Source: an uncultured Clostridia bacterium
GTDB lineage: Bacteria; Bacillota; Clostridia; Christensenellales; Borkfalkiaceae
Assembly: GCA_947589235.1 (NCBI GenBank)
Contig: CANQAX010000002.1
Span: forward strand, 9,054-73,053
Length of the DNA stretch: 64,000 nt
Reading direction: 5' to 3'
Shown here: positions 4,174-48,214 of the stretch, piece by piece
How the letters are laid out: each line of letters opens with the position of its first letter
How positions within the stretch are numbered: position 1 is the first letter of the stretch
Made by a program: the position numbers and the translations under genes
Notes under the pieces: generated by a model
Databases searched by the model: none
Told to the model about the DNA's origin: nothing
Seen by the model: the letters and a program-made list of their open reading frames with translations, nothing else

Positions 4174-4227
4174 ACGCTGTAATGTTTTTCGGTGACATTT
4201 TCACGATTTTTTTCGGAAAAAATCTCC

Positions 4228-5287: not shown

Positions 5288-5308
5288 TCGGTAACTCCTA
5301 TCATTCAC

Positions 5309-5337
5309 ATTATACAAACTGTCTACCCATATATCAA
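5309..5337 (-). promoter_or_regulatory. Consensus promoter for the 4517..5287 gene
   Basis: Minus strand: TTGATA (5337-5332), 17 nt, TATAAT (5314-5309). The spacer contains the repeated box GGTAGACA (TGTCTACC on the plus strand). Confidence 0.6.
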
Positions 5338-5402
5338 GAAAATATAGATAAATCGTAAATATTGTCTACCATAAAACCCGAAATACGGCAGACGGAATTT
5401 TG

Positions 5403-5431
5403 TTGAAGTGCAAGTATTTTTTTGCTATAAT
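5403..5431 (+). promoter_or_regulatory. Consensus promoter for the 5491..6485 three-gene operon
   Basis: TTGAAG (5403-5408), 17 nt, TATAAT (5426-5431). Confidence 0.6.
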
Positions 5432-5490
5432 GAAAATGTAAGCGGAGCAAGGCGCCCCTCTGCTTGACAAAATTTAAGGAAGGTATTAAA

Positions 5491-5865: not shown

Positions 5866-6121
5866 AAGCAGATTTACGCCGAGAGCAAAAGAGGAAGCCA
5901 AAAAACTTTTATCCGAAATGAAGATAGCGGAGTTGAACGACGACAACCTCTATGAGGTCGAAGTCGAGCTTGACACAAGGGTAAGCGGATTGGTCACGAT
6001 GAATGAATGTGAACATCAACCGATAGATCATGAGCTTTTGGACATCTACGATACACTGACGGATATTATTCTTGAGCACGAAGAAGAGATAAATTTCCTG
6101 AACAAGTTGTTTTTGGAATAA
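5846..6121 (+). CDS. Hypothetical small acidic protein
   Basis: Strong RBS AAAGGAGGAAAAAGGAAAT before the ATG at 5846. It overlaps the previous gene by 20 nt. The protein is 91 aa and rich in D/E (…NDDNLYEVEVELD…EHEEEINFLNKLFLE). Confidence 0.7.
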   Translation: MLSESLKSRFTPRAKEEAKKLLSEMKIAELNDDNLYEVEVELDTRVSGLVTMNECEHQPIDHELLDIYDTLTDIILEHEEEINFLNKLFLE

Positions 6122-6164
6122 AAGAAAAAGGGAATGGGGCGGCAAAAAAATTTCGGAGGAAATT

Positions 6165-6485
6165 ATGAAAAAAAGAAATAAAAAGACAGAACAAGAAGCG
6201 CCGCTCTTTTGCGTCAGTGAAGAAGCAATTGATTTTATTCGCACATACATCCTTCCCGTTAAACATATCGACTTTATAGACGAGGATATATTTTATGATA
6301 TTTTTGAAATTGCGGAAAGCTGGGAACTCGATATGATCGACGAAGACGGATTTGACAAAACAGATGATCCGTTTATAGAACGGGATACAATGGGAATGAA
6401 TTTCGTCTCTGAAATATCGGGGCAAGACGCCGAGCCGGATCTCGACGACCTGAACCGCCGTTTGGGATTGCGCAAAACAAATTAA
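6165..6485 (+). CDS. Hypothetical small acidic protein
   Basis: RBS GGAGGAAATT before the ATG at 6165. The protein is 106 aa and very acidic (…IDEDIFYDIFEIAESWELDMIDEDGFDKTDDPFIE…AEPDLDDL…). Confidence 0.7.
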   Translation: MKKRNKKTEQEAPLFCVSEEAIDFIRTYILPVKHIDFIDEDIFYDIFEIAESWELDMIDEDGFDKTDDPFIERDTMGMNFVSEISGQDAEPDLDDLNRRLGLRKTN

Positions 6486-6543
6486 ACAACCGGGCAAGAG
6501 CGTGTCCCGATTAAACCCTTGTCTTTATGATTCCCCATGGAAT

Positions 6544-6565
6544 GCCCCCGCCGATTGGCGGGGGC
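6544..6565. terminator. Perfect hairpin GCCCCCGCC-gatt-GGCGGGGGC; includes the right copy of the 15-bp direct repeat
   Basis: On the plus strand it is followed by AATTTTTCATTTCTTTT, which terminates the islet operon. On the minus strand it begins 6 nt after the tex stop but lacks a U-tract. Confidence 0.7.
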
Positions 6566-6571
6566 AATTTT

Positions 6572-8746
6572 TCATTTCTTTTCGGGTCTGTCCTTCCGCA
6601 TCGTGAGGGAGATGCGCCCGCGCCTCTCGTCGACGTCGAGCACGCGGACGGTGACGACGTCCCCCACCGAGAGCACCTCGGACGGGTGGCGGATATAGCG
6701 GTCGCCGATCTCGGAGATGTGCACGAGCCCGTCCTGATGGACGCCGATGTCGACGAACGCGCCGAAGTCGATGACGTTCCGCACCGTTCCCCTCAACTCC
6801 ATGCCCCTCTTCAAGTCCTTGATCTCGAGCACGTCCGTCCGCAGAACGGGCGCGGGGAGCTCGTCGCGCGGGTCCCGCCCCGGCTTCATGAGTTCGCCGA
6901 TGACGTCGTACAGCGTGGGAAGCCCTACGCCGCACTCCTTTGCCGCCCGCTCGTCCCCGTAGTCATGGAGACGCTCGCGGAGGTGACCGATTTTCCCCGC
7001 CCGCACCTCGGACATGGTATAGCCGCAGAGCGCGAGGAGCTTCTCCGCCGCCCCGTAGCTCTCGGGGTGGACGGCGGTGTTGTCGAGCACCTCTTCGCTC
7101 TCGGGCACGCGCAGGAAGCCCGCGCATTGCTCGAATGCCTTGTCCCCGAGCCCCTTCACCTTGCGGAGGGCGCGCCGCGAGCGGAAGGGACCGTTCTCCT
7201 CGCGGTACTTCACGATGTTCTCCGCGACGCTCGCGTTGAGCCCCGCAACGTGCGAGAGAAGGGGCGCGGAAGCCGTGTTGACGTCCACGCCGACGGCATT
7301 CACGCAGTCCTCCACGACGCCGCCGAGCGCCTGCGAGAGCCGCTTTTCGGGCATGTCGTGCTGATATTGCCCGACGCCGATGGACTTGGGCTCGATCTTG
7401 ACGAGCTCGGCGAGCGGGTCCTGCAGCCGCCGCGCGATGGAGACCGCGGAGCGGAGATTGACGTCGAAGTCGGGGAACTCGCGCGCCGCGAGCGGGGAAG
7501 CGGAATAGACGGACGCGCCCGCCTCGTTCACGATGATATAGGAGAGGTCGGGCAGGCGGAGGGACGAGATGAGTTCCACCGTCATGCGCTCCGTCTCGCG
7601 GCTCGCCGTGCCGTTTCCGATGGCGATGTGCTTGACGCCGTGTCTCTTGATGAGGTCGGAGAGCTTTCCGATGCACTCCCTCTTCTGCCGCTCCCCGTGG
7701 GTGGGATAGACGACCGCGGTGTCGAGCACCTTGCCCGTGCCGTCGACGACGGCGACCTTGCACCCCATGCGGTAGCCGGGGTCGAGCCCCATGGTGACGA
7801 ATCCCTTGACGGGCGGCTGCATGAGGAGGGGGCGCAGGTTGAGGGCGAACTGCCCGATCGCGCCCTCGGACGCCCGCTCGAAGAGGGCGGCGCGCACCTC
7901 GCGCTCGAGGCTCGGCTCGATGAGGCGGTCGTAGGCGTCCTCACAGCAGGCGCGGACAAAGGACGTCGCGGCGCACGGCTTTCCCACCATGCGGCGGACG
8001 GCGAGCGCGACCGCGTACTCGTGCGGGATCTCGACGCCGACGCGGAGGATTTCCTCCCGCTCCCCGCGGAATGCCGCGAGCACCTGATGCCCCGCGACGG
8101 AGGAGACGGGCGCCGAGAAGTCATAGTAGTTGCGGTAGACGGTGTCCTCGGGGTCCTTCTTCGCCGCCGAGGAGCGGAGCACGCCGTGCGCCATGGCGAA
8201 TTCGCGGAGCGATTTGCGGAGCGCCGCGTCCTCCGAGATCCGCTCGGCGATGATGTCGCCCGCGCCCGCAAGCGCCTCCTCCGCGCTCTCCACCCCCTTC
8301 TCGGGGTCGATGTAGTCCCGTGCTGCGGCAAGGGGAAGCGGGACGTCGGGCTGCTGCGCGAAGAGAAGATCGGCGAGCGGCTCCAGCCCCTTCTCCCTTG
8401 CAATCGTGGCGCGGGTGCGGCGCTTCTGCTTGTACGGGCGGTATAAATCTTCGACCTCGGCGAGCGTCGCGGCGCCGTCGATGCGGGCGGAGAGCTCTTC
8501 GGTGAGCTTCCCCTGCCCCTCGATTGCCCGCTTTACCTCGGTGCGGCGGGCTTCCAACCCGCGGAGGTACTCGAGCCGCTCGGACAGGGAACGGATGGTT
8601 TGGTCGTCCGTCGCGCCGTGCATTTCCTTGCGGTAGCGCGCAATGAAGGGGACGGTGTTCCCCTCGTCGAGCAGGGAGACGATGTTTTTGACGTGCTCCT
8701 CGCTCTTGTGAAATTCTTCGGCTAAAATCTGTACAACATTCGGCAT
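6572..8746 (-). CDS. tex: Tex-like transcription accessory protein (YqgF/HhH/S1 domains)
   Basis: ORF 6572..9016 trimmed to the ATG at 8746. The protein begins MPNVVQILAEEFHKSEEHVKNIVSLLDEGNTVPFIARYRKEMHG... and ends in an S1 domain ...GTVRNVIDFGAFVDIGVHQDGLVHISE.... Confidence 0.92.
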   Translation of the reverse strand: MPNVVQILAEEFHKSEEHVKNIVSLLDEGNTVPFIARYRKEMHGATDDQTIRSLSERLEYLRGLEARRTEVKRAIEGQGKLTEELSARIDGAATLAEVEDLYRPYKQKRRTRATIAREKGLEPLADLLFAQQPDVPLPLAAARDYIDPEKGVESAEEALAGAGDIIAERISEDAALRKSLREFAMAHGVLRSSAAKKDPEDTVYRNYYDFSAPVSSVAGHQVLAAFRGEREEILRVGVEIPHEYAVALAVRRMVGKPCAATSFVRACCEDAYDRLIEPSLEREVRAALFERASEGAIGQFALNLRPLLMQPPVKGFVTMGLDPGYRMGCKVAVVDGTGKVLDTAVVYPTHGERQKRECIGKLSDLIKRHGVKHIAIGNGTASRETERMTVELISSLRLPDLSYIIVNEAGASVYSASPLAAREFPDFDVNLRSAVSIARRLQDPLAELVKIEPKSIGVGQYQHDMPEKRLSQALGGVVEDCVNAVGVDVNTASAPLLSHVAGLNASVAENIVKYREENGPFRSRRALRKVKGLGDKAFEQCAGFLRVPESEEVLDNTAVHPESYGAAEKLLALCGYTMSEVRAGKIGHLRERLHDYGDERAAKECGVGLPTLYDVIGELMKPGRDPRDELPAPVLRTDVLEIKDLKRGMELRGTVRNVIDFGAFVDIGVHQDGLVHISEIGDRYIRHPSEVLSVGDVVTVRVLDVDERRGRISLTMRKDRPEKK

Positions 8747-12456: not shown

Positions 12457-15400
12457 TCATCCGAGGCGGAAGTACCGCATGTTGAACACTTCGCCGACGC
12501 CGTTCCAGTCATTGGCGCTGTCGCGGACCTCGAGGATGAACGTGACCTGCTTGCCGTTCAGCGAATCGATGCCGTGCTCCGCGCAGAGGGCGGAGAGGTC
12601 ATAGTTCTGCACGCCGACGTCGCCGCTCGACATCCAGTCGAAGATGACGATATATTCGCCGTCCACGTACATCGCAAGTTTCGTGTACACTCTGCCCGAG
12701 ATGTCGAGGGAGAGATTGACCTCGTCCGAATTCATCTCGATGCACTTCGCGCTCCAGCAGTTGATGTTGCCGTTGCGCTTTTCGTCGCCGCCGCCGTCCG
12801 AGGCGTCGATCTGAAGGGAGCCGCACGGGCGGAGCGTCTCATGGTCGTACGCGCCCCACGAGCAGTACTGGCTCGTCACGATCTGCTCGCCGAGCATCCA
12901 GTCCTCGGTGGAGCCGTTCTCGAACTCGTTGCTGTACGGGTCGGGGCAGACGGTATCCTCGCCCTCGACGATGGCGCGGTCGGTGACGGAGAAGCGGTCG
13001 ATGCGGACGGGCACCTCGGTGAGATTCTCGATCTTCACGGACGCCGTCTTGCCCTTGTAGTCGGCAAAGTATTGCGAGACGGGGAAGGCGAACGTCATCC
13101 AGCCCTGCCCGCGCACGATGCTGCTGCCCGTGCCCTCGACGCCCTTCATCTCGGCGCGGGAAATGACGGTCTTCTCGACGCCGTCGACGGTCAGGGAGAG
13201 CTTGAACGCAGCCGTCGTGGTCTGGTTTTCGGCCGCGGCGCGGGCGTAGAAGGAGATCCACAAATCATCCACCGCGGGGAGCGGGAACGCCGCCTTGTTC
13301 GCCGTGCCGTTGCCCGCGATCTGCATGTTCGTCTTGAAGAAGGAATATGCTTCGGGGGCGGAGGCGTCGGAGGAGCTGTACGTCACGTTGCCCGTCCAGT
13401 CCTCACACCAGAGGAGGAAGTCATTGTAGAGCGGGTCGGTCGGGATGCTCTGCGGATTCTCGCGGAGCATGTCATCGGTGATGGTATGCCCGGAGCCCGT
13501 CGCAGGCATGTTGAAGTGATCGACGGTGTCCGCCTTGTCGGTGACGTTCGCCCGCATCATGGAGACGATCCTGTCGACGGAGACGACCTCCACGTTGTCC
13601 GCGAGCATGCCGCAGATGGTGCGGATGTCGGCATAGTTGTGCGACCAAGGGTGCACGTTGATGACGGTGTAGGCGTCCATCTTGGTGATGTCGGTGCCGT
13701 CCGCCGTGTCCGCATACATGTTGACGCGTGCCGCAAGGTAGGCGGGCGTCGTGCTCCACAGCGAGTCGCGCGGGACGATGAACGGCTTGCCGTTCCTCCA
13801 ATACACGCCGCCCGAATAGGCGCCGTCGAAGTATCTGCCGCCCGTGTAGACGATTGCGCCGTCGAGGTTCTCCACGCGCGAATAGGCATCGAGCGTGTCA
13901 TAGATGCCGTTGCGGTTGTTCTCGGCGCCGATGATCGTGCCGACGTGCAAGCCCGACCGTCCGAGGTAGGTGTCGAACTTGGAAAGAAAGTCGTTCATGT
14001 ACACCGCGCTCGAGTTGTAGAAGTTGCCCGCGTCGATGTACCCCTGCCCCGAGACGGGCGCGCAGAAGTAATCGTTCTCCGTCGTGATGTCGCTGTTGTA
14101 CGCCGTGTCCATGACGAGGGGCATCATGTCCGAAAGGGAGGGCGTGATCGACCACGTGACGGGGAAGTCATCGTTCTCCCTGCCCGTCGCGTTCATGTAG
14201 ACGGTGGAGAAGATGGCGGTGTTCTGCCAATACTGCGCGTTGTCGCCGTCCGAGACGATGAACGCCACGTAGTGCTTGCCCTGCTCGGCGGGCTGCGCCC
14301 TGTCCGTGTTGGGCTGCTCGAAGCCGCCGTCGCGGCGGAACTCCTCCGCTGCGTGGAAGGTGAGGTTCATCGTGTAGTCGGTCGGCACGAGGAACTGCCC
14401 GTACTGGCTGAAGAGGGCGACGTCGCGCGTCTCGTCATAGGCATATCCCAAGATGGGGATATTCTTGGACAGGAAGGTATGGATCTGCTTCTTGAGCGTC
14501 TCGCGGATGGTGACCGAGTTGTCATAGAACACGTGAAGGTACTTGTGCATGACGCCGTAGTCGCGCATGTAGTAGTTGGTGTTTCCGTTGATCTGATAGG
14601 GCTGGTGGACGAGCCCCTCGGGCGAAAGCTCGGTGAGGCAGGCGTTGAAGAGCCAAGAATATCCCCACGTCGAGGCGGTGACGTCCATCTTTTCGACGAG
14701 CCCGAGGGCGTCGAACTCCTCCTTCTTGTCCTGCTCGACGGGAAGGAATCCCGTGATGCCCGCGAGCGTCGAGGCGACGTTGACGGAATACGTCCCCTTG
14801 CGGTAGACGATGTACCCCGGGGTATCGTAGCCGCTGCGGGGCTGCGCCTCGGTGTAGGCGGAATAGATGCCCTCGCTGTTGCTGAATCCCGTCGCGAGCG
14901 GAATGTTGCTCCCCCAAATGCCCTCGGCGTGCATGTCCGCCCAAGCGTCCTTGTAGAGCTCCACGGCTCCCGCAAGGTCGATGACTTCGCGCGTGACGCC
15001 GTATTCCTCCTCGGCGCGCTCGAGGTAGTACACGTCGGCATTCGTGCCGTTCGTCACATACCGCCCGTCGATGTACAGCGTGACCTCCTTGCGGGCGAAC
15101 AGACCCTGCATGGCGGCGAGCGTGTTGAGCTCGTCGTTGTCGCACGAGGCGTCGAGATTGAGAACGTACAGCTTCTTGTCCTCGCGGAGCTCCGTCGGCT
15201 CATAGTACGAGAAGTCGTCGTCCCCCGTCACGGGCGTATCGGGCGCGGGGCGGTAGTTGGGGTCGGGGTCCCCGCAGAGCGTGCAGAAGCCGTTGACGAA
15301 GTGATGGTTGCATTCATCGGGATTCTCGGGCGTCTGTCCGCCGGGGTTTTCGGGCGTCTGTCCGCCGGGATTCTCGGTCTCATTGCCGCCCGAGGGGTTT

Positions 15401-15500: not shown

Positions 15501-16355
15501 TTACTTTAATCCGCTGATGTTGCTTTGGTTGAGGATATACTTCTGGAACACGAGGTACATCACGATGATGGGAATTGTGATGAGGATCATGCCGGCGGAA
15601 CGGACGTAGTTGTCCGCGGCGCCGCCGAACTTGGGATTGAACTGCCGCATGGCGAGCTGCAGGGTATACAGCCAGTCCGAATGCGAGGCGTCGTGCAGGA
15701 TCATCGGGAAGAGGTACTCGTTCCACGTTCCGATGAACGTGAGAATGATGTACGTCACGATGATGGGTCCCGACATGGGGAACACGATCCAGAACAGCTT
15801 CTTCACCTCTCCGCACCCGTCGAGCGAGGCTGCTTCGAGGACGCTGTCGGGAATGTTCGCCATGTACTGCCGCACGAGGAAGATCCCGAACACGTTGACG
15901 ATACCGGGAAGGATGATGCCGAGCGTGTTGGTGTTGATCCCGAAGAAGATGGTGAGCTTGTAGTTCGCGGCGAGCATGACTTCGCCGGGGATCATGAGCG
16001 TCATCATGAGCATGCCCGCGACAATGCCGCTTCCGCGGAAACGGATCTTCGCGAGGACATATCCCACGCACACAACGACGATGAGGCTCAAGAAGGTAAA
16101 CGAACAGGTGTGCAGAAGGCTGACGCCGAGCGCCTGAAAGAAGCGGGACGCTTGGATCGCCGTGCCGAAGTTCTGCATGGTGAAGTCGGCAAACCAGTAG
16201 TACACCTTGCCGATCTCGGGCAGGAATTCGGGCGAGTGGGTGGCGTCGACGAGCTTGAGCCAGAACGGGAAGCACTGCAGAAACGCCACGAGAATGAGGA
16301 ACACGTAACAGAAGGTATGGAACACGTAATCGCGCCATTTGAGCGACTTAATCAT
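15501..16355 (-). CDS. Carbohydrate ABC transporter permease (MalG-like)
   Basis: ORF 15501..16439 trimmed to the ATG at 16355 (GGAGGAG RBS). It is multi-pass, with the EAA-loop region ...LEAASLDGCGEVKKLFWIVFP.... Confidence 0.9.
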   Translation of the reverse strand: MIKSLKWRDYVFHTFCYVFLILVAFLQCFPFWLKLVDATHSPEFLPEIGKVYYWFADFTMQNFGTAIQASRFFQALGVSLLHTCSFTFLSLIVVVCVGYVLAKIRFRGSGIVAGMLMMTLMIPGEVMLAANYKLTIFFGINTNTLGIILPGIVNVFGIFLVRQYMANIPDSVLEAASLDGCGEVKKLFWIVFPMSGPIIVTYIILTFIGTWNEYLFPMILHDASHSDWLYTLQLAMRQFNPKFGGAADNYVRSAGMILITIPIIVMYLVFQKYILNQSNISGLK

Positions 16356-17277
16356 AGGACGTCTCCTCCTTGCCCGAGAGTTTTTTCTGCACGATGGAGA
16401 TCGCCAAGATGATGAAGAAGAGCACAAACGCGTACGCACAGCCCTGCCCTATCCTCATCTTTTCAAAGACGGACTTATAGATGAGGAGCATTGCCGACTG
16501 CGTCTTGTTGTTCGGACCGCCGTTCGTGACGAGCTGCATGGGACCCAACACCTTGAATCCGTCGATGAGGGAGAGCAGGGTATTGAGGAGAATGGCGTTC
16601 CGCATGAGCGGGAGCGTGATCTTCATGAAGATCTTGAAGCGGCTCGACGTCTCGAGGTACGCCGCCTCCTGATAGGTCTCGGGAATGGCGACGATCGCGG
16701 CGTAGTAGATGAGCAGCTTTTGGCAGAATCCGAAAAAGAACGGAATGACCATGAGCGCCCAAATTGCCGTATTGGGGTTCAAAAACCACTCGACGGGTCT
16801 CCCTCCGCACGCGATGATGATCTGGTTGATGATGCCGCCGTTGTCGGGCGCAAACACCGTTTGGGCGATGTCCGCGCCGACGATTGCGGAGACGAGCGAG
16901 GGCCAGAAGAGGAGCGCCAAGAACACCTTTCCTCCCCGTTTCAGGCTCTTGATGAGGAAGGCGCAAAGAAGTCCCATCACGTTGTTCCCGACGAGCATGA
17001 CGATTGTCCAGAGCGACGTGACGCCGATAGCGGACCAGAACTCCTTCGCCTGCGGCGTGTTGGAGAAGATACGGATGTAGTTGTCGAAGGAGATGAGCGT
17101 GACGCGGTCCCACGTGAAGCCGCGGCTCATGTCCGTAAAGCTGACGACGAACGCCCAAACGAAGGCAATGACGAAGAACACCGTCCACCAAAGAAGCGGG
17201 ATCCCGATGATGGAATACGCGGTGATCTCGTTCTTGTACTTCTTCTTAAAAGACGAGAATGCCGATTTCTTCTCCAT
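16348..17277 (-). CDS. Sugar ABC transporter permease (MalF-like)
   Basis: The EAA-type loop reads ...ETYQEAAYLETSSRFKIFMKITLPL.... The start was chosen at the ATG at 17277 after GGTGAGG; 17292 is also possible. Confidence 0.9.
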   Translation of the reverse strand: MEKKSAFSSFKKKYKNEITAYSIIGIPLLWWTVFFVIAFVWAFVVSFTDMSRGFTWDRVTLISFDNYIRIFSNTPQAKEFWSAIGVTSLWTIVMLVGNNVMGLLCAFLIKSLKRGGKVFLALLFWPSLVSAIVGADIAQTVFAPDNGGIINQIIIACGGRPVEWFLNPNTAIWALMVIPFFFGFCQKLLIYYAAIVAIPETYQEAAYLETSSRFKIFMKITLPLMRNAILLNTLLSLIDGFKVLGPMQLVTNGGPNNKTQSAMLLIYKSVFEKMRIGQGCAYAFVLFFIILAISIVQKKLSGKEETSYD

Positions 17278-17295
17278 GCCGTACGACCTCACCGC

Positions 17296-18645
17296 TTAAT
17301 CCATGTAAATTTCTTCGAGGACGCCCCTCACCTGCTCGTGAATGCCCGCGCACTCCTGCGCGACGCCGCTCTTGTCGGAGGGGGTCGTGTGCTGGACGAG
17401 CCCGGTCACGAAGGTGCCGAGGATCTCCTCGATGTCTGCCCAAGCGGGGCTGCCGGGGCGGACGACGGCGCTCTCGAGCTGTTCGATGAACACCTGCCAT
17501 ACATCTCCCGCATAGAACTCGTCCTGAACGCCCGTTCTGGTCGTCGGAATGAGGTTCTGCGCGGTCGAAAAGGCGAGCTGGTACTTGTCGTTCGTCGCGA
17601 CGAATTTCGCGAAGTCGGCGGCGAGCGCAGCGTTGTGGTTGGCGGTGTACCGCTCGTTGGAGATGACGAGGTCATACAGCCCTATCGTCGAGCCGTTGTT
17701 CCCGCCCTCGGTGAAGGGAATGGCGGTGGTGTAGCCGACTTCCCAGCCGTAGTTCGCCGAATACTTCGCGTAGTCCTCGATTTTCCAAGGACCCATTTCG
17801 ATGAAGCCTATCCTTCCGCTCTCGAATTTCGCCTCGCTGAACGAGCTGGGGGCATATTCGCCGAGCTCGAACATCTTGGTCGCTGCGTCGACGCATGCCT
17901 GCGAGTTGAAGAGGCTCGTCTTCATGTCCGCCGAGAGAATCCCCTCCCCGCCGCTGCGGTTGACGAAGGCGAGGTAGCTCATCGCCGCCATCGATTCGTG
18001 GTTGTTGCCCGCGGGAATGGTGATTCCATAGTAGGGGTCGCTCGCGGTCGAGGCGTCGTTGAGCGCATAGATCTGGCTGCAGAGCTCGAGGAGCTCGTCG
18101 AAGTTCTTGGGAAGGGTGACGGAATCCGCCGTCGTGTTCTGCGCCCGCGCGATGAGCGTCTTGTTGTACACCGTGACGAGCACGTTCGCGCTCATCGGGA
18201 GCCCGTACAGCTTGCCCTCATAGAAGCCGGGCTCCCAGAGGGTGTCGACAAAGGTGTCCTCGAGCTCGTCGTAGCCGACGCTCGAGAGGTTGGAGATGTA
18301 CCCGTCGAAGGCGAGCGTCTGCACGAACACGTGGTCGACGTAGGCGATGTCGGGCGCGCTGTTCCCCGTGCAGGCGAGAAGGTAGGCGGGGTAGAAGTCG
18401 GGCGTCGACTGACCGACGATCTCGATCTCCACGTCGGGATAGAGCGCGATGTAGTCCGCCTTCGCCTGCTCGATGGGCGCCATCTCCTTGGAGGAGCCCG
18501 GCCACCACACGGTGATCTTTCCGCTGTGCTCGACGAGCTCTTCGATGTCGGTATTCTGATCCCTTCCGCCGCCCACTGCGCAGCCGCAGAGGCTGAGCCC
18601 CATGACCGCGGCGAGCGCAAGGGAAATGCTCTTTGCTTTCTTCAT
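17296..18645 (-). CDS. ABC transporter extracellular solute-binding lipoprotein
   Basis: The protein begins MKKAKSISLALAAVMGLSLCGC (lipobox). It is 449 aa and adjacent to the two permease genes. An AAGGAG RBS precedes the start. Confidence 0.9.
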   Translation of the reverse strand: MKKAKSISLALAAVMGLSLCGCAVGGGRDQNTDIEELVEHSGKITVWWPGSSKEMAPIEQAKADYIALYPDVEIEIVGQSTPDFYPAYLLACTGNSAPDIAYVDHVFVQTLAFDGYISNLSSVGYDELEDTFVDTLWEPGFYEGKLYGLPMSANVLVTVYNKTLIARAQNTTADSVTLPKNFDELLELCSQIYALNDASTASDPYYGITIPAGNNHESMAAMSYLAFVNRSGGEGILSADMKTSLFNSQACVDAATKMFELGEYAPSSFSEAKFESGRIGFIEMGPWKIEDYAKYSANYGWEVGYTTAIPFTEGGNNGSTIGLYDLVISNERYTANHNAALAADFAKFVATNDKYQLAFSTAQNLIPTTRTGVQDEFYAGDVWQVFIEQLESAVVRPGSPAWADIEEILGTFVTGLVQHTTPSDKSGVAQECAGIHEQVRGVLEEIYMD

Positions 18646-29515: not shown

Positions 29516-29780
29516 TTCCCCCTCCGAGTATATCAATTATATCATACTTTTTGTCAAAAAAACAAACAACCGCCGATAACGCGATCGTGAGCGATGAAGC
29601 GCAGAAAAAAGAGCCTGACCTCATGCGAGATTCCCCTCGTTTCCGTCAAATTGACCTTTTTAACGATGAAACGGCATAACAGGAAGATTGTCGGGCGGCT
29701 CGGCAGCCGCCCCGTCTTTTCGGCGGGTTCCCCGTTCGGCTTTCGCGGAGAAAGACCCCCTTTGTGGGCACAGGAAAAGG

Positions 29781-29806
29781 GCTTATCCCGTGAAGGAATA
29801 AGCCCC
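29781..29806 (-). terminator. Possible intrinsic terminator
   Basis: Minus strand: GGGCTTAT-tccttcacggg-ATAAGCCC followed by TTTTCC. Confidence 0.35.
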
Positions 29807-29841
29807 GAACCACAATGTTGTGTTTTGATTTTGAACGGCTG

Positions 29842-29958
29842 CTATTTCGCCGCCCTCGGATTATTTAACCAACCCGCAAGCGGAATGCGCTCCGTGAATG
29901 CCATATCGTAGAAGCTCGCTCCCTCCGCCCAAAATTTTTCGCCAATGACGTTCTTCAT
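29842..29958 (-). CDS. Possible 38-aa remnant ORF
   Basis: The ORF reads MKNVIGEKFWAEGASFYDMAFTERIPLAGWLNNPRAAK*. It looks like the N-terminus of a larger enzyme. It has no RBS and is followed by the 29781-29806 hairpin. Confidence 0.2.
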   Translation of the reverse strand: MKNVIGEKFWAEGASFYDMAFTERIPLAGWLNNPRAAK

Positions 29959-30192
29959 CGGGGAGAAATCAAGCGCCCCGCTTTCGTTTTTTAATTTCCG
30001 CCGTCACACCCGTTCCCAGCGATTTGATTGCACCGAAACGCAATTCCCACTACTATCTTGATAATTTTTTTCTATAAAAAATGCACCAATAAAATCCTGC
30101 CGAACTTTTTGGAACGCATCCGAATAATCAACCGAAAGGCATCGTGTTTATCCTGTTTCCCCGTCGACCCCCAAATCGGAAACCGCCGAGGA

Positions 30193-32682
30193 TCAAGAAA
30201 CCGCGGATCCAAATTCGAGAGAAGTCATCAATCCCGACATGATTGCCGCCTCTTTTTCCGGACAAATGCACGCCAATATATTTGCCAAAGTGTTGATTAC
30301 TCTATCGATATATGCCCCGGGGCTCTTACGATACAATTCGATGTACAATAGGATAGAATCAGTATAACTTTTCAACGCCTCACTTGTTTTGTTAAATTTC
30401 AGGTACGCATCGCCGAAATGATTGCACGTGCGGGCAAGTTCATTGGAAAAGGAAAACTGCTTATATATTTGCTTGGCAGCGAGATAATTTTCCTCTGCGC
30501 CATTCAGTTCCCTCTTTTGGACAAACAACTCGGCAAAAAGACAATGGATCGCCGCGAGTTCCGCATCCGAACTTTGACCTGCGAATGACAAAATTCTCCG
30601 TTGCATCCGCGCTCCTTCTTTGAGAAATTGTTCTGCTCGATTGAGATCCCCCGTCTGCAAATACAGTTCGGCAAGATTTTTATACGCTTCGACAACGCTC
30701 CTTTCGTTTGCTTCCGGATTTTGCTGTGCCATTTTTTGCCGTATCTTCAATGATTGCAAACACCACGCTTCGATCATGTCCGTATCTATCTTCTTACGAT
30801 AATACGAAAAATCCGTGATTGGAGGATCCTCCTTGTCGAAAACCGCAGCGTCGATTTTTTTGCTACATGCTGCAAACTTTTTCGCATCCTTCTCGTCCCC
30901 GTAATTTGTGTACTCGCGTGACAAGATTTCGCATATCAATTTCAACAGCGACGCAAACGCTTGGGCTTTGTCTCGCTTTGTTTTATGCTGCATGAGCGCG
31001 TAACGCAATTTGAACGCCTCGACAAAATAGCGATCCTTTTGCCTATGCGATAAAATCGCGCAATTGATATGCGCCAATCTGGCACTGATATCGGCCACAT
31101 ATTTTTCATAATCGGCATGCGTTTTTATGAGAATGTTGCATACATCGAGCGCTTCTTTCAGCAAATCTTCCGCCTCGCGGTGCCGATTCGTTTGATAATA
31201 CAGTTCCGCAAGCCAAATATTGATGTCCGCCTTTTTGATCTGCTTTTCATCGGTCTCATCAGCAAAATCGTAAATTATCAATGCGTCGCGGTATAACGCT
31301 TCCGCACGCGCATGCCGATTGAGACAATAATATACTTTGGCGAGATCGATACATGAATCCGCATAGTCGAATTTGAAACTCGAATCTGCTTGAGACAATT
31401 CCCTTCTTATCTGTACGCAACGCGACAAGATATTATCTGCTTCTTGGTATTTGCCGAGTTTATAATATGCCAACCCGCAAAGATTTTCGGCATCTCCTTT
31501 GCGCCTTTTCCCATTGATATCGTCCGTTTTGAAAAACAAATCGAGTGAAAGACAAACCGAGATGCACTTTTCATACTGCGTCTGTTGAAATAAAAATAAC
31601 GCATATTCATACATAACTTTTTTGGGCATCTGCGGGCGGTTTTCGACTTGCTCCACCGCTTTGATATAATTTGCATGAACCTCGTCCCAACGCGCCTGCG
31701 CTTTTAGCGCAAGAATTCGCATACGGTATTCTTCTACGATTGCAATTCTTTCTCCGATAACATTTTTTTCCATCTCATCCAATTCTGCCACGTTGTTCTC
31801 AATATCCGCAACATTCAGCGCTTCGAGAACTCCGTCATAATCGCCAGAATCGAAACACTTGATTGCTTTTCTTATATTATCCGAAATCGCTTTACCGCTT
31901 GTTGTGAGCGATACGATGCTGTTTCCGATATCCAAGATATTCCCCGCCAGTTCATCAATATCTGCTTTCAATCTATCCCTTTCTTTTGCCGCTTTGCTCA
32001 ATTCGCGGTATACTTTGTAATTCCCCTCATCCGCCGCATACATTGCCTGTAATCTTTGGCTATTTTCCACCGCCTTCGTATAGTTCTCCCAAAGTTCGGT
32101 ATATTCTGCATTCTCGGCAAAAAGCGGGATGCGCCCCACCGGGATGATGCTGCTATCGGCGCACACAATAGCGTTGTCCTTCACGGTTATATCGGCTTTT
32201 ACAAAACCGTGCACCTGTAATTGAGTAATGATCCCCAATTTCAATGAATCAATATGCGAGTACTCCCTGTGATAGTGCAACAGTTCCTCATCGATCATGC
32301 GCATTACATTTTTGATTTCTTCGGAGGGGTCCTCATCTGCCGTCGTTTTTTTGAAATATACTACGATCTTCGGCTTGTTGCAAATTCGATTGGAATCGAG
32401 CGCGATCTTAAGTTCGTGAAATGTAACCTCTCCCACCTTATGCCAAAAAATAACGAAGCACATGTCCGAGCCTTGAATGAGTTCATCTAACGATGCTTGC
32501 GATCCTTCAATGCGAATTGAGTGATCCATCGTATCGCTTTCACATTTGTACAACTTGATAAAGATCCCGGATTCTTGATAGATATTGTTCAGTTGGTTGA
32601 TAAAATCGCCTATCGCAAGACGATCATATTCCAAATCCGTGATGGAAGATGCCAAGAAAAATGTTACGGTTTTTTTATCCAT
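30193..32682 (-). CDS. TIR-like/DUF4062-like N-terminal domain + coiled coil + multi-TPR protein (829 aa) in an AT-rich island
   Basis: ORF 30193..32781 trimmed to the ATG at 32682. The N-terminus is MDKKTVTFFLASSITDLEYDRLAIGDFINQL...IKLYKCES...CFVIFWHKVGEVTFHELKIAL...KPKIVVYFKK. A coiled-coil stretch follows (…KAAKERDRLKADIDELAGN…). There are at least 6 TPR-like units (LAYYKLGKYQEADNIL, LAKVYYCLNRHARAEALY, LAELYYQTNRHREAEDLL, LAELYLQTGDLNRAEQFL ...). Confidence 0.85.
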   Translation of the reverse strand: MDKKTVTFFLASSITDLEYDRLAIGDFINQLNNIYQESGIFIKLYKCESDTMDHSIRIEGSQASLDELIQGSDMCFVIFWHKVGEVTFHELKIALDSNRICNKPKIVVYFKKTTADEDPSEEIKNVMRMIDEELLHYHREYSHIDSLKLGIITQLQVHGFVKADITVKDNAIVCADSSIIPVGRIPLFAENAEYTELWENYTKAVENSQRLQAMYAADEGNYKVYRELSKAAKERDRLKADIDELAGNILDIGNSIVSLTTSGKAISDNIRKAIKCFDSGDYDGVLEALNVADIENNVAELDEMEKNVIGERIAIVEEYRMRILALKAQARWDEVHANYIKAVEQVENRPQMPKKVMYEYALFLFQQTQYEKCISVCLSLDLFFKTDDINGKRRKGDAENLCGLAYYKLGKYQEADNILSRCVQIRRELSQADSSFKFDYADSCIDLAKVYYCLNRHARAEALYRDALIIYDFADETDEKQIKKADINIWLAELYYQTNRHREAEDLLKEALDVCNILIKTHADYEKYVADISARLAHINCAILSHRQKDRYFVEAFKLRYALMQHKTKRDKAQAFASLLKLICEILSREYTNYGDEKDAKKFAACSKKIDAAVFDKEDPPITDFSYYRKKIDTDMIEAWCLQSLKIRQKMAQQNPEANERSVVEAYKNLAELYLQTGDLNRAEQFLKEGARMQRRILSFAGQSSDAELAAIHCLFAELFVQKRELNGAEENYLAAKQIYKQFSFSNELARTCNHFGDAYLKFNKTSEALKSYTDSILLYIELYRKSPGAYIDRVINTLANILACICPEKEAAIMSGLMTSLEFGSAVS

Positions 32683-32698: not shown

Positions 32699-32735
32699 AA
32701 AAGAGGCCGTTTCCTTTCGGAACGGCCTCTTTTCT
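32699..32735. terminator. ppdK intrinsic terminator (bidirectional A-tract/T-tract hairpin)
   Basis: AAAAGAGGCCGTT-tcctttcg-GAACGGCCTCTTTT. Confidence 0.85.
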
Positions 32736-45194: not shown

Positions 45195-45282
45195 TGCGAC
45201 ACAATAAAATACTAACCATATAAAAGATACATTGGCGTCGGTGTATCCTTATTACCTTATATGGTTAGTTGATTGTGTCGCA
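45195..45282 (+). ncRNA. About 88-nt extended nested hairpin in the 5' leader (unclassified cis-regulatory RNA candidate)
   Basis: TGCGACACAAT (45195-45205) pairs with ATTGTGTCGCA (45272-45282). ACTAACCATATAA pairs with TTATATGGTTAGT. GATACA pairs with TGTATC at the tip. Confidence 0.45.
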
Positions 45283-45304
45283 ACAATTCGGGGATACTCG
45301 AAGC

Positions 45305-45336
45305 GGGCGCCTCGAATTGAGGCGTCCTTATTTTTT
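45305..45336 (+). terminator. Leader intrinsic terminator (attenuator) 8 nt upstream of the RBS
   Basis: GGGCGCCTC-gaatt-GAGGCGTCC followed by TTATTTTTT. The RBS AAAGGAGGAA lies at 45344-45353. Confidence 0.65.
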
Positions 45337-45358
45337 GCCCGCGAAAGGAGGAACAGCT

Positions 45359-48214
45359 ATGAAAAAGAAACTTTTACTTGTCCTGCTGACGCTTGTCGCC
45401 TCGCTGTGTCTCTGCTTCGGGCTCGCCGCATGCGGAGGATTCAAGACAGAGGGCACATATTATCTCTTTGAAGACGAAGAATACGATAAAAGCACATATT
45501 TCATTCTCAAAAAGGGAAAATGGACGGACGAAAACGGCGCATCGGGTGAATATGAAATCGACGGAGATACGATCACTTTCTATTCCAACTTGTTCGGACA
45601 GAGAATGGAACTCACGAGCGGGACGATCAAGGACGGCGTTCTCACGATGGGCGGCGTGTTCGGCGACGCAATCTATGCACAGGAGGGTGCGGCACACGTG
45701 CACGAATACGGCGATTGGGTCACGCAGACTCCCTCGACGTGCACGGAATACGGCACGGAAGTCCTCATCTGTAAGACATGCGGAAAATATCAAAGCCGTC
45801 CGCTTCCTCTTGCTCCGCACCCCTACGGCAAATGGGAGATTACCATTTCCCCGACTTGTACCGAAGTGGGAGAAGAAAAGCATACCTGCACCGTCTGTTC
45901 CCATGAAGAAACCAGAGTAGCGAATCCGCTCGGGCATGAATTTACTGTGGAGAACAGGTGCATTCGCCATGAAAACTGCGGTACGGAATGGGAGTACACC
46001 GAAGGTCTCGAATACGACCTTGATACAGAAACAGACACCTACAAGGTGAAGGGGATCGGCACGGCAAGCGGCGACATTGCGATTCCCTACGGCTATAAAG
46101 GGAAATTCGTGACCTCGATTGGAGATTGGGCGTTCAATAGTTGTGGCGTAATTACAAGTGTTGAAATTCCCGACAGCATCACCTCGATTGGGAATTATGC
46201 GTTCGCTTATTGTGTCAGACTTACGAGCGTAACGATTGGAAACGGCGTGACCTCGATTGGATATCAGGCGTTCTATGATTGCGACGGACTTACGAGCATT
46301 ACCATTCCCGACAGCGTGACTTCGATTAAACGCGAGGTGTTCCGTGATTGCAGCGCGCTTGAAAGCGTCACGATTGGAAACGGCGTGACCTCGATTGGAA
46401 ATAGTGCGTTCTCGGGTTGCAGCGGGCTTACAAGCATTTTGATCCCCGACAGTGTGACCTCGATTGGAAGTAGTGCGTTCTCTGGTTGCAGCAGGCTTGA
46501 AAGCATTACGGTTGCGACGGGAAATCTGAATTACAGCAGTCAAGACGGAATTTTGTATAACAAGGCAAAGACGGAAATTGTGCACGTCCCGAAAGCAATC
46601 AAGGGCAGTATCGCCATTCCCGACGGTGTGACCTCGATTGGAAGTTCTGCGTTCTCTGGTCGCGATGGACTAACGAGCGTTACCATTCCCGATAGTGTGA
46701 CCTCCATTGGAAGTCGTGCGTTCCGTGATTGCAGCGCGCTTGAAAGCGTGACGATTGGAAACGGCGTGACCTCGATGGGAGATGATGCGTTCGAGGGTTG
46801 CAACGGACTTACGAAAATTCGTATTGCAGACCTTGCGGCATGGTGCAGGATCAATTTCGGGAACGAGGATGCCAATCCTCTCCGTTGTGCACATCATCTG
46901 TACTTGGACGAAAATGAAATAAGGAACCTTGTCATTCCAAACGAAGTTACGGAAATCAAGAGATGTGCATTCTCTGGTTGCGACGGACTTACAAGTGTTA
47001 CGATCCCCGACAGCGTGACCTCGATTGGAGAGTATGCGTTCCGGGGCTGCACCAAACTTACGAGTGTTTCCATTCCCAACAGCGTGACCTCGATTGGAAG
47101 ATTTGCGTTCCGGGGCTGCACCAAACTTACGAGTGTTTCCATTCCCAACAGCGTGACCTCGATTGGAGATTATGCTTTCTCTGGTTGCAGTGGACTGACG
47201 AGCATTGAAATTCCCAGCAGTGTGACCTCGATTGGAGATTATGCGTTCCGTAATTGCAGCGAGCTTACGAGTATTACAATTCCCGACAGTGTAACATCGA
47301 TTGGAGAGCGCATGTTCGAGGGTTGCAGTAGGCTTACGAGCGTAATAATTGGAAACGGCGTGACCTCGATTGGAGATTATGCTTTCTCTGGTTGCAGTGG
47401 ACTGACGAGCGTGACGATTGGAAGCGGCGTGACCTCGATTGGAAGTAGTGCGTTCAGTGGTCGTAGCGGACTTGAAAGCATTACGGTTGCAATGGGAAAT
47501 CCGAATTATAGCAGTCAAGGCGGAATTTTGTATAACAAAGCAAAAACGGAAATTGTGTACGTCCCGAAAGCAATCAAGGGCAGTATCGCCATTCCCGACG
47601 GTGTGACCTCGATTGGAAGTTCTGCGTTCTCTGGTCGCGATGGACTAACGAGCGTTACCATTCCCGATAGTGTGACCTCCATTGGAAGTCGTGCGTTCCG
47701 TGATTGCAGCGCGCTTGAAAGCGTGACGATTGGAAACGGCGTGACCTCGATGGGAGATTGGGCGTTCAAGGACTGCACTGGGCTTGAAAGCGTCATTTGG
47801 AATGCGGAAAATTGTACAACGGCAGGGAGTTACAGCTATCCGATTTTTAAGGGTTGCACAAATTTTAGGACAGTGACATTTGGTGAGACTGTCAAAACAA
47901 TTCCCGCTTATGCGTTCAAGGGTTGCACCGAGCTTACGAACATTGCAATTCCCGATAGTGTGACATCAATTGGAAGTGAGGCGTTCAGTGATTGCACCGG
48001 ACTTACAAGTATTACAATCCCCGACAGCGTCACTTCTATTGTATATGCGGCATTCTCGGGTTGCAGCGGACTTACCGACATTCAATTCGAGGGCACAGTA
48101 GCAAAATGGAATGCGATTGAGAAAGGAGTGGCTTGGGACGGTGGCACAGGCAATTACACTGTTACTTGTACGGACGGAACGATAAAATGGGACGGGACTG
48201 TGACGTATTTTTAA
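45359..48214 (+). CDS. BspA-like leucine-rich-repeat (LRR_5-type) surface lipoprotein
   Basis: ORF 45269..48214 trimmed to the ATG at 45359. The protein begins MKKKLLLVLLTLVASLCLCFGLAAC (lipobox). A Cys-rich segment (TCTEYG...CKTCG...) follows. After that come more than 25 units of ...LTSVTIPDSVTSIG..AF.GC..... Confidence 0.9.
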   Translation: MKKKLLLVLLTLVASLCLCFGLAACGGFKTEGTYYLFEDEEYDKSTYFILKKGKWTDENGASGEYEIDGDTITFYSNLFGQRMELTSGTIKDGVLTMGGVFGDAIYAQEGAAHVHEYGDWVTQTPSTCTEYGTEVLICKTCGKYQSRPLPLAPHPYGKWEITISPTCTEVGEEKHTCTVCSHEETRVANPLGHEFTVENRCIRHENCGTEWEYTEGLEYDLDTETDTYKVKGIGTASGDIAIPYGYKGKFVTSIGDWAFNSCGVITSVEIPDSITSIGNYAFAYCVRLTSVTIGNGVTSIGYQAFYDCDGLTSITIPDSVTSIKREVFRDCSALESVTIGNGVTSIGNSAFSGCSGLTSILIPDSVTSIGSSAFSGCSRLESITVATGNLNYSSQDGILYNKAKTEIVHVPKAIKGSIAIPDGVTSIGSSAFSGRDGLTSVTIPDSVTSIGSRAFRDCSALESVTIGNGVTSMGDDAFEGCNGLTKIRIADLAAWCRINFGNEDANPLRCAHHLYLDENEIRNLVIPNEVTEIKRCAFSGCDGLTSVTIPDSVTSIGEYAFRGCTKLTSVSIPNSVTSIGRFAFRGCTKLTSVSIPNSVTSIGDYAFSGCSGLTSIEIPSSVTSIGDYAFRNCSELTSITIPDSVTSIGERMFEGCSRLTSVIIGNGVTSIGDYAFSGCSGLTSVTIGSGVTSIGSSAFSGRSGLESITVAMGNPNYSSQGGILYNKAKTEIVYVPKAIKGSIAIPDGVTSIGSSAFSGRDGLTSVTIPDSVTSIGSRAFRDCSALESVTIGNGVTSMGDWAFKDCTGLESVIWNAENCTTAGSYSYPIFKGCTNFRTVTFGETVKTIPAYAFKGCTELTNIAIPDSVTSIGSEAFSDCTGLTSITIPDSVTSIVYAAFSGCSGLTDIQFEGTVAKWNAIEKGVAWDGGTGNYTVTCTDGTIKWDGTVTYF
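46496..46783 (+). repeat. Intragenic 288-bp duplication, copy 1
   Basis: It is near-identical to 47471-47758, with the last ~190 bp identical by eye. The offset is 975 bp (in frame). Confidence 0.85.
47471..47758 (+). repeat. Intragenic 288-bp duplication, copy 2
   Basis: See 46496-46783. Confidence 0.85.

Follow-up and report, generated by a model that had tools for sequence, protein, structure and literature searches.

An accessory gene of an uncultured Clostridia bacterium couples a predicted divergent DUF4062/TIR-like domain to a TPR solenoid without an NTPase: a candidate stand-alone anti-phage protein

Recognition of DUF4062 as a TIR-like NADase, and as an anti-phage effector encoded by a single gene, dates only from 2026; proteins carrying it are now described both as NADases and as single-gene abortive-infection defences (10.64898/2026.05.01.722283; 10.64898/2026.06.25.731849). 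The two closest described systems each consist of one gene and lack an NTPase: Swarozyc (KpSwz; Osinski et al., 10.64898/2026.05.01.722283), a DUF4062 TIR-like NADase whose winged-helix/HTH auxiliary domain binds the phage portal that triggers KpSwz, and Evangelion (Ibarra-Chavez et al., 10.64898/2026.06.25.731849), in which DUF4062 is joined to an auxiliary domain. Eva01 (WP_000072390.1, from S. aureus pMW2) is a plasmid-borne protein of 324 aa whose auxiliary region is short and carries no annotation. The conserved DUF4062 glutamate has been shown to act in catalysis in KpSwz (E97) and in TEP1 (E1008) (10.64898/2026.05.01.722283). The human DUF4062 proteins NPHP3, NWD1 and NWD2 had no NADase activity in vitro as purified, so an intact-looking DUF4062 domain is no guarantee of activity. 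By sequence, DUF4062 sits between the TIR and NDT clans.

Here we analyse a gene for an 829-aa protein in a 64-kb stretch of chromosomal DNA from an uncultured Clostridia bacterium (hereafter, the window; Table 1). Its parts follow the Swarozyc order of enzyme head, small β-sheet after αE, helical stalk and C-terminal sensor. Like Swarozyc, it has an N-terminal five-stranded DUF4062/TIR-like domain with a glutamate on αC (E97 in KpSwz, predicted to be E90 here), is encoded by one gene without an NTPase, and shows a patchy spread that fits horizontal transfer, often near defence genes. It differs in its sensor, which here would be a TPR solenoid of ~480 aa plus linker helices; the winged-helix/HTH domain of Swarozyc is not present by Pfam, AlphaFold or Foldseek. 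It differs also in its length of 829 aa and in a head that belongs to a divergent clade invisible to the Pfam model PF13271. As in Evangelion, conservation lies in the core and variation in the auxiliary part; unlike Eva01, the protein is chromosomal, carries TPRs, has E-L in place of E-Y and does not conserve the Trp of the Q/W/E motif. The original prediction had considered the absence of an NTPase unusual among TIR-type defence proteins, a view that Swarozyc and Evangelion have made outdated. Because both are already NTPase-free DUF4062 defences, the 829-aa protein does not constitute a new category.

Table 1. Features of the 829-aa gene and its surroundings (positions within the window)
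Feature	Position	Strand	Basis
Complete gene, 829-aa DUF4062-like + stalk + TPR protein	30193..32682	(-)	ORF list; homologues; composition; AlphaFold model
Residues 1-160, predicted divergent DUF4062/TIR-like α/β domain	32203..32682	(-)	AlphaFold; HHalign; Pfam hits of relatives; tblastn
Glu90 codon, predicted catalytic Glu, motif T87-F-H-E90-L...A94	32413..32415	(-)	alignment with Eva01; codon verified
Residues 161-190, three-stranded β-meander below the α/β domain	32113..32202	(-)	both AlphaFold models
Residues 191-265, long helical stalk, helices 192-217 and 222-261	31888..32112	(-)	AlphaFold
Residues 266-350, conserved helical linker / first TPR-like helices	31633..31887	(-)	AlphaFold; homologues
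Residues 351-829, TPR solenoid, ~13 helix pairs	30196..31632	(-)	Pfam TPR_10, TPR_12, TPR_2 and others; AlphaFold; Foldseek
ppdK intrinsic terminator, 15-bp GC-rich hairpin with T-run	32699..32733	(.)	
Non-coding island tail, 656 bp, low GC (0.49)	29537..30192	(.)	
Terminator-like hairpins in island tail	29778-29806 (-) and 29693-29712		

With 82 full-length homologue clusters (34-67% identity), the gene is no chance ORF. It starts at an ATG (MDKKTV...) and its stop codon occupies 30193-30195; a longer, TTG-started ORF reaching 32781 crosses the ppdK terminator and finds no backing in the N-termini of the homologues. The gene had been noticed as an AT-rich island between GC-rich housekeeping genes, and its composition bears this out: its GC content is 0.433, compared to 0.593 for the rest of the window, and its GC3 is 0.488, compared to 0.879 for ppdK (PPDK_N, PEP-utilizers and PEP-utilizers_C domains) and 0.776 for the acyltransferase (PF01553) on its other side. 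The upstream ppdK lies on the same strand, with nothing but its terminator hairpin and 16 nt before the start codon. A promoter of its own would not fit into this gap, and the gene is therefore probably expressed when transcription reads through the terminator of ppdK. The promoter region of the acyltransferase comes after the non-coding island tail. Direct repeats resembling att sites were sought around the island, and only short chance repeats turned up; an Rfam scan of the island gave only a sub-threshold rli61 match, produced by the terminator hairpin.

AlphaFold modelled the full-length protein with a pLDDT of 87.5 and the N-domain with a pLDDT of 78. In both models the N-domain is a five-stranded α/β fold running from βA-αA through βE-αE (βA 4-11, αA 15-38, βB 40-46, αB 61-71, βC 74-79, αC 85-101, βD 105-111, αD 121-133, βE 139-141, αE 144-157), with a loop at 47-60, corresponding to the 'BB-loop', modelled at low confidence. 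The segments from which this fold was first proposed, VTFFLASS, KLYKCES, CFVIFWHKVG and KIVVYFKK, coincide with model strands βA-βD. The β-meander that follows (strands 165-168, 171-174 and 177-181) is the least conserved segment of the protein (median identity 0.20); in the models it appears to match in position the small intertwined β-sheet of KpSwz between αE and the stalk. What had been read as a coiled coil is indeed a helical stalk, but AlphaFold renders it as a pair of long helices with further helices after it. The stalk forms part of an N-terminal module of ~200 aa that 3,085 clusters retain as one unit. Within the linker, F277, D278 and G280 are invariant, and identity is 0.84 to the nearest homologue, with a median of 0.45.

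The TPR units expected after the stalk were recovered by Pfam (TPR_10, E 5e-20; TPR_12, E 4.5e-19) and by AlphaFold, which places ~26 helices at residues 355-821. Foldseek matches this solenoid to the TPR superhelices of LGN, OGT and the APC/C, and the 829-aa protein and its relatives also match the NPHP3 and TPR_NPHP3 Pfam models weakly. The TPR part is the fastest-diverging large domain (median identity 29%, compared to 60% for the effector domain) and is presumed to be the sensor. No Pfam NTPase family and no Walker A or B motif was found in the 829-aa protein; a loose Walker-type match occurred in one of 82 family members. The model likewise leaves no unassigned globular space, residues 160-350 forming the β-meander and helices only. 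The predicted lack of a P-loop/STAND NTPase between effector and repeats thus stands. This sets the protein apart from DUF4062-NACHT/AAA_16-TPR STAND proteins (bacterial NPHP3 relatives), which resemble it in their N-terminal DUF4062-type head and C-terminal TPR_10/TPR_12/TPR_NPHP3-type repeats and adjoin homologues in the same Bacteroidota islands (L017 and L021); where the STAND proteins have their NTPase (NACHT, NB-ARC or AAA_16), the β-meander and stalk are found here.

Pfam, NCBIfam and PADLOC, run on the whole 829-aa protein and on its first 352 residues, returned TPR families and noise only, and PF13271 (gathering score 24.7 bits) was missing from the protein even at E ≤ 10 and from the precomputed lists of all 82 close homologues. 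Profile comparison gave a different picture. An 80-sequence profile of the N-module aligned by HHalign with canonical DUF4062 (the Eva01 clade) over 134 columns (probability 96%, E 4.9e-9), pairing residues 1-156 with Eva01 3-149 at ~22% core identity. This match became convincing only once distant N-module relatives had joined the profile: a narrower, 29-sequence profile reached a probability of 16% (E 1.7e-3) against an Eva01-family alignment and 5% against Eva01 as a single sequence. PF13271 itself hit 12 of 29 close relatives, the best at E 1.9e-4, and 15 of 52 distant relatives. One of the distant relatives, which the N-module profile had collected at E ≤ 1e-35, scored 37.1 bits (P0237), above the gathering score. 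A tblastn search with the N-domain alone found the annotated DUF4062 gene of Acaryochloris pMB06 (30.5% identity, E 1e-5). On these sequence comparisons we identify the N-terminal 160 residues as a divergent DUF4062/TIR-like domain, as had been suggested; the N-module profile matches at least 3,085 clusters (50% identity).

The domain is not recognizable as a canonical TIR. The TIR families PF13676 and PF01582 gave no significant Pfam match (TIR_2 appeared in 2 of 29 members, at E ~0.05), and a Foldseek search of the PDB with the N-domain model returned no TIR among the top 50 structures, only weak and generic flavodoxin-like matches with TM ≤ 0.5. These mix flavoproteins and GTPases and do not discriminate among TIR, NDT and GTPase folds. 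The KpSwz and TEP1-TIR structures were absent from the PDB matches of both Foldseek and a profile search; the latter, made from the N-terminal alignment against PDB sequences, yielded no meaningful match. Some relatives (for example P0159, E 6.7e-21) carry a genuine TIR_2 domain beside the DUF4062-like module, indicating that the two modules are distinct units. The protein would share with canonical TIR defences (Thoeris ThsB, TIR-STING, TIR-SAVED and TIR-NLR) a flavodoxin-like fold, a glutamate on αC and the expected consumption of NAD+, but it has no significant TIR match in Pfam or Foldseek and no ThsA, STING or SAVED partner.

An acidic residue does occupy the catalytic position. HHalign places E90, in the αC helix of the model, in register with the putative catalytic E87 of Eva01 (SYT84-E-M-E87-Y...A91). 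Of the 80 N-modules, 77 have E at this position and two have D, and none of the 82 close homologues departs from E. Around it the same register pairs F9 with F11 (conserved in 79/80), R21 with R23 (77/80), T87 with T84 (75/80), A94 with A91 (80/80) and P104 with P97, each in a KP motif (80/80). S12-S13 align with Eva01 S13-S14 (S-S in 76-77 of 80), and the N-terminal aromatic motif is present in βA, with S-S and D-L-x-x-E/D-R after it (F9-L-A-S12-S13-I-T-D16-L-E-Y-D20-R21). Elsewhere the match to the canonical pattern is mixed. The E-Y dyad of DUF4062 is E-L in the 829-aa protein, the second residue being F in 47 of 80 relatives and L in 33; Q62, kept in 77 of 80, lies one alignment column off Eva01 Q50 and is not followed by a Trp; and the counterpart of Eva01 G161-W162, G159-F160, is conserved in the close family only. 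The clade also has conserved residues of its own, namely C47 (76/80) in a C47-E48 pair, H136-Y137 and a D145/K148 block. A zinc site built from C47, H54, C75 and H143 was considered and rejected, since only C47 of the four stays conserved across the wider family, and the parallel strands place C47 and C75 at opposite ends.

This is an accessory gene. Across 80 related loci with 75-88% identity in ppdK, it is missing near or downstream of ppdK, and two genomes that share 88.5% identity in ppdK share 64% in this gene. Comparison of L045 (ppdK-HD-dnaG-rpoD) with L010 (ppdK-GENE-HD-dnaG-rpoD) reveals an empty site, which pertains to the L010 arrangement and not to that of the window; relatives with the acyltransferase neighbour, which would supply the exact empty site of the window arrangement, were sought in metagenomes and none were found. 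Homologues are patchily distributed over two phyla (Clostridia/Christensenellaceae and Prevotella), and most of the relatives that were examined belong to Clostridia and Bacteroidota of the gut and rumen. A phage collection contained no relatives, and the plasmids searched contained one distant relative.

Apart from the ppdK-linked copies in the window and in L001/L010, the homologues occupy unrelated places, and the expectation that they would lie among defence genes held for about half of the loci. DarG (E 5e-62) and DarT are directly upstream of the homologue in L025. PDC-M12A/B (E 7.6e-117 and 3.8e-37), components of a candidate system, and a serine recombinase are upstream in L012. ThsB_TIR-WD40, DUF4062-NACHT-TPR, RyR, RHS and McrC-like genes occur in the Bacteroidota loci. 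In four of nine loci, the window included, the surroundings are purely housekeeping. Neighbours differ in each locus, and no partner gene, including a ThsA-like effector, is common to the nine contexts, in agreement with the original prediction.

We favour, with modest confidence, the explanation that this is a horizontally acquired, stand-alone conflict gene, most likely an anti-phage one acting by abortive infection, with a DUF4062 NADase head using Glu90, a stalk and a TPR sensor. In its favour are the homology to DUF4062, the residues in register with Eva01, the fold and order of parts described for KpSwz, the conserved effector joined to a divergent TPR part, the accessory status and the defence contexts. 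Counting against it are the lack of any PF13271 or PADLOC hit to the protein itself, the weak match of the 29-sequence profile, the generic Foldseek matches of the N-domain, the E-L in place of E-Y and the missing Trp, the clade-specific conserved residues, the four housekeeping contexts, the inactivity of the human DUF4062 proteins, and the scarcity of relatives among phages and plasmids. The analysis shows homology, fold, motif conservation, architecture, accessory status and genomic contexts; the NADase chemistry, dimerisation and trigger, and the defence itself, are proposed by analogy with the described systems. The stalk would probably serve as a dimerisation element, as in Swarozyc, and together with the β-meander would connect the enzyme head to the ~480-residue TPR sensor. 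At rest the heads would be inactive, with the flexible loop 47-60 standing where the regulatory BB loop sits. A phage protein, peptide or multimeric phage assembly might then dock on the TPR solenoid and re-align the stalks, so that the heads gather into an active arrangement. Neither an NTPase nor a partner gene would be required.

The head could instead be active but catalyse another reaction, either cleaving the N-glycosidic bond of a nucleotide or nucleoside, in the manner of the NDT-like MilB, BcmB and BlsM, or producing a signal molecule derived from ADP-ribose, like the ThsB-type TIRs of Thoeris. MilB, BcmB and BlsM (CMP/hydroxymethyl-CMP N-glycosidases) are among the weak Foldseek matches, and both the position of DUF4062 between the TIR and NDT clans and the clade-specific C47-E48, H136-Y137 and E-L/F are compatible with altered chemistry. 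Every one of those matches is weak, however (TM 0.4-0.5), and mixed with GTPases and flavoproteins; KpSwz and TEP1, both DUF4062 enzymes that have been assayed, yielded only ADP-ribose or ADPR-phosphate plus nicotinamide; and a signal-making enzyme would require a partner effector, of which the neighbourhoods give no sign. We regard this alternative as unlikely. About as unlikely, the protein could be a TPR scaffold or regulator without enzymatic activity, not necessarily immune, with a head that acts only as an oligomerisation or interaction module. The inactivity of purified NPHP3, NWD1 and NWD2, the weak NPHP3 and TPR_NPHP3 matches, the solitary housekeeping context of four loci and the lack of any PADLOC hit to the 829-aa protein would all suit such a role. 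Retention of the catalytic Glu and the T-x-x-E-x-x-x-A motif in 75-80 of 80 divergent relatives is hard to square with a structural head, which is moreover the most conserved part of a protein that otherwise diverges. The accessory status of the gene, its foreign composition and its repeated proximity to defence or mobile genes also speak against this reading.

The location of the gene might also suggest a housekeeping function tied to ppdK, for example as a regulator of central carbon metabolism transcribed together with ppdK: in the window and in L001/L010 ppdK precedes it on the same strand, and read-through is probable. This idea is very improbable and has been largely refuted by distribution, given the absence of the gene beside ppdK in 80 related loci, the empty site in L045, the unrelated places of all other homologues, the faster divergence of the gene than of ppdK and the gap in GC3 (0.49 compared to 0.88). 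It is a tentative possibility, and not our expectation, that the clade as a whole is a distinct defence family, and not one more auxiliary-domain variant, that senses invaders through TPRs without an NTPase switch and has a head whose reaction or regulation could differ from those of the Swarozyc and Evangelion NADases; its own Cys47-Glu48 and H136-Y137, and E-L/F instead of E-Y, are the reason for considering one.

Our literature searches found no description of a DUF4062 or TIR-like protein with TPRs that lacks an NTPase. What is new here is the TPR sensor and an effector clade of at least 3,085 clusters that goes unseen by Pfam; because PF13271 is found in none of the 82 close homologues, Pfam-based surveys would probably miss it. 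The β-sheet and stalk connector common to Swarozyc and the 829-aa protein suggests a general transmission element that very different sensors can drive. If confirmed, the proposed function would extend the known DUF4062 immune repertoire to gut anaerobes and provide a tractable case of a repeat-protein sensor activating a TIR-like enzyme without an NTPase, and it would help account for the pairing of DUF4062 with TPRs in eukaryotic NPHP3-type proteins.

The window gene is real and not a chance ORF, because 82 clusters of full-length homologues (800–864 aa, 34–67% identity) exist in public data. As the original prediction stated, it is a low-GC gene between a plsC-like gene and ppdK: its GC is 0.433 and its GC3 0.488, compared with a GC3 of 0.879 for ppdK, 0.776 for the downstream acyltransferase and 0.77–0.90 for all other confident genes in the window. 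Pfam matches bear out the two neighbours: one encodes pyruvate phosphate dikinase, the other an acyltransferase (PF01553). The ATG start at 32682 (MDKKTV...) agrees with the N-termini of all homologues; a longer, TTG-started reading was rejected, since it would cross the ppdK terminator hairpin. Both genes lie on the same strand, ppdK first. Because only this terminator and 16 nt precede the ATG, expression of the window gene probably depends on terminator read-through. An Rfam match to rli61 at the hairpin (+ strand) was sub-threshold (32.8 bits versus a gathering score of 50) and probably reflects nothing more than the hairpin itself.

A housekeeping role tied to ppdK can be judged from gene distribution. 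The ppdK-gene junction also occurs in one related MAG (L001/L010), where ppdK is 88.5% identical to that of the window and the gene product just 64%. However, no homologue lies near ppdK in any of 80 metagenomic loci whose ppdK is 75–88% identical, and locus L045 presents an empty site (ppdK-HD-dnaG-rpoD, versus ppdK-gene-HD-dnaG-rpoD in L010). This absence and the empty site are evidence that the window gene is an insertion; the distribution largely excludes the ppdK-linked role, which we regard as highly improbable.

Homologues are scattered patchily among Clostridia, Christensenellaceae, Ruminococcus and Prevotella MAGs, in contexts that differ at every locus, and their GC is usually below that of their flanks (difference up to 0.17). 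One 58%-identical homologue lies directly downstream of DarG/DarT and another directly downstream of a PDC-M12A/B candidate system, each with a serine recombinase adjoining. Bacteroidota islands contain RHS toxins, VapE-like genes, ThsB_TIR-WD40 proteins, DUF4062-NACHT/AAA_16-TPR STAND proteins, RyR-domain proteins and McrC-like/methylase genes. The defence neighbourhoods that the original prediction had proposed to look for were thus found at the DarTG, PDC-M12 and Bacteroidota loci, but four contexts, the window's among them, are plain housekeeping surroundings.

In Bacteroidota loci, a 749–793-aa protein that neither Pfam nor PADLOC matched directly follows the homologue on the same strand, and small RyR-domain proteins recur in these islands among large TIR, DUF4062 and TPR proteins; this may be a recurring island organisation. 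At locus L017, the genes flanking a TIR_2-hexapeptide gene, itself not recognized by PADLOC, comprise two with RyR domains and one for a DUF4062-AAA_16-TPR STAND protein. Within the window, a BspA-type gene is another large single gene of low GC (~0.49 across its region versus ~0.62 around it). Because two further low-GC stretches are present, the contig carries several foreign-looking insertions.

Features of the window and of compared loci
Feature	Position	Strand	Remarks
Window gene	30193–32682	-	829-aa ORF, from ORF list
Codons of clade-specific head residues	within 32203–32682		
ppdK terminator hairpin	32699–32733		15-bp GC-rich stem, 3' of ppdK stop codon; 16 nt from window-gene ATG
Non-coding low-GC tail			656 bp, 3' of window gene
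BspA-type leucine-rich-repeat protein	45269–48214	+	981 aa; LRR_5, E 1e-204
Low-GC stretch	1–1000		GC 0.39–0.44
N6/N4 DNA methylase-matching fragment	503–889	+	E 8.6e-7; in stretch 1–1000
Low-GC stretch	4000–6500		GC 0.39–0.44
ORF without Pfam match	4517–5317	-	266 aa, GC3 0.47; example in stretch 4000–6500
L017 TIR_2-hexapeptide protein	16217–18469	-	750 aa; TIR_2 + hexapeptide-repeat/LbH_EIF2B domains
L021 protein after homologue	12544–14793		
L023 protein after homologue	12604–14985		
L024 protein after homologue	5245–7626		

Pfam matched the window protein to TPR families alone (~350–800; TPR_10, E 5e-20; TPR_12, E 4.5e-19), with no match in residues 1–350, and PADLOC and NCBIfam scans returned nothing useful. 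The AlphaFold models, built on the family alignment (pLDDT 87.5 at full length, 78 for the isolated domain), have five beta-alpha units (residues 4–157), a three-stranded beta-meander (165–181), two long helices (192–217, 222–261) followed by more helices, and an unbroken helical-repeat solenoid up to residue 821, which Foldseek likened to TPR superhelices, among them those of LGN/Pins, OGT and APC/C subunits. Both the predicted TPR repeats and the lack of an NTPase module were borne out: a search for Walker A/B motifs found none, and the model leaves no unassigned globular region. Conservation across the family peaks in the first 160 residues, where dozens of positions are invariant; median identity is 60% in the head and 29% in the solenoid.

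This head very probably belongs to DUF4062, because four independent lines agree. Among 29 family members scanned singly, 12 had weak DUF4062 matches (best E 1.9e-4) and only two had TIR_2 matches; the window protein does not reach the Pfam DUF4062 threshold. When the first 205 residues (the N-module) served as profile query in an exhaustive search, 3,085 representative clusters were recovered, 1,619 at E ≤ 1e-10; the module almost always stands at the very N-terminus, in proteins ~600–1,375 aa long. Of 52 more distant relatives, 50 matched TPR_12 and 15 DUF4062, one (P0237) above threshold (37.1 versus 24.7 bits); no NTPase family was among their 25 most often matched families. HHalign aligned a profile of 80 N-modules with the canonical DUF4062 clade of Eva01 (WP_000072390.1, the founding Evangelion protein, from pMW2) at 96% probability (E 4.9e-9; window 1–156, Eva01 3–149). 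By tblastn, the window domain alone matched (30.5% identity, E 1e-5) an Acaryochloris plasmid gene whose annotation reads 'DUF4062 domain-containing protein'. Some N-module members, such as P0159, carry an extra genuine TIR_2 domain (E 6.7e-21) ahead of the module, and P0149 and P0218 appear to have two modules in tandem.

In the HHalign alignment, window F9, S12-S13, D20-R21, T87, E90, A94 and P104 correspond to Eva01 F11, S13-S14, E22-R23, T84, E87, A91 and P97. Eva01 E87 is the putative catalytic Glu (10.64898/2026.06.25.731849), and its equivalents in KpSwz (E97) and human TEP1 (E1008) are needed for activity (10.64898/2026.05.01.722283). E90, invariant in the close family and kept in 77 of 80 N-modules, supplies the conserved Glu that the original prediction had suggested seeking. 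Homology and this motif therefore place the protein, as judged from sequence, in the DUF4062 superfamily; the original TIR-like/DUF4062-like label stood, but the domain is not a canonical TIR. The family departs from the canonical pattern in having E-L (or E-F) instead of E-Y and a conserved Gln with no Trp after it. Clade-specific C47 (beside Glu48), H136-Y137, D145 and K148, kept in 75–77 of 80 N-modules, have no counterpart in the canonical motif list.

As a TIR-like NADase, DUF4062 yields ADP-ribose and nicotinamide in KpSwz and TEP1, or ADPR-phosphate and nicotinamide from NADP+ (10.64898/2026.05.01.722283). Foldseek against the PDB gave the head model a generic flavodoxin-like fold at most (TM ≤ 0.5), with NDT-like N-glycosidases (MilB, BcmB, BlsM) among the matches, no TIR in the top 50 and none of the published DUF4062 structures among the PDB matches. 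Other N-glycosidase or signalling chemistry in the head is unlikely in our estimation, and we give just as little credence to a catalytically silent scaffold like NPHP3, E90 being so widely kept.

Single proteins that combine DUF4062 with an auxiliary sensor, Swarozyc and Evangelion, protect via abortive infection (10.64898/2026.05.01.722283; 10.64898/2026.06.25.731849). In Swarozyc, intertwined beta-sheet and helical stalks connect the heads to the sensor, and phage portal binding to the sensor switches the enzyme on (10.64898/2026.05.01.722283). Because the window protein shares this order of parts (head, beta-sheet, helical stalk, sensor), with the TPR solenoid as presumed sensor, we infer its chemistry, oligomerisation, trigger and defence role by analogy: the resting protein would be a dimer or oligomer, a phage protein or assembly would bind the solenoid, and binding would activate the heads and deplete NAD+. 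The analysis itself establishes the gene's homology, fold, motifs, architecture, accessory status and contexts. We lean somewhat towards this full mechanism.

The original prediction considered NTPase-free single-gene logic unusual; it has in fact been described very recently (the 2026 Swarozyc and Evangelion preprints). The window protein is nonetheless no Swarozyc member, as the auxiliary domain there is a winged helix, nor does it belong to the short, plasmid-borne Eva01 lineage, the canonical TIRs or the STAND NTPases. Neither preprint's text mentions TPR, and a literature search found no paper on a DUF4062-like head with TPRs and no NTPase. What is new is the putative TPR sensor, a divergent head clade unseen by Pfam, and the size of that clade.
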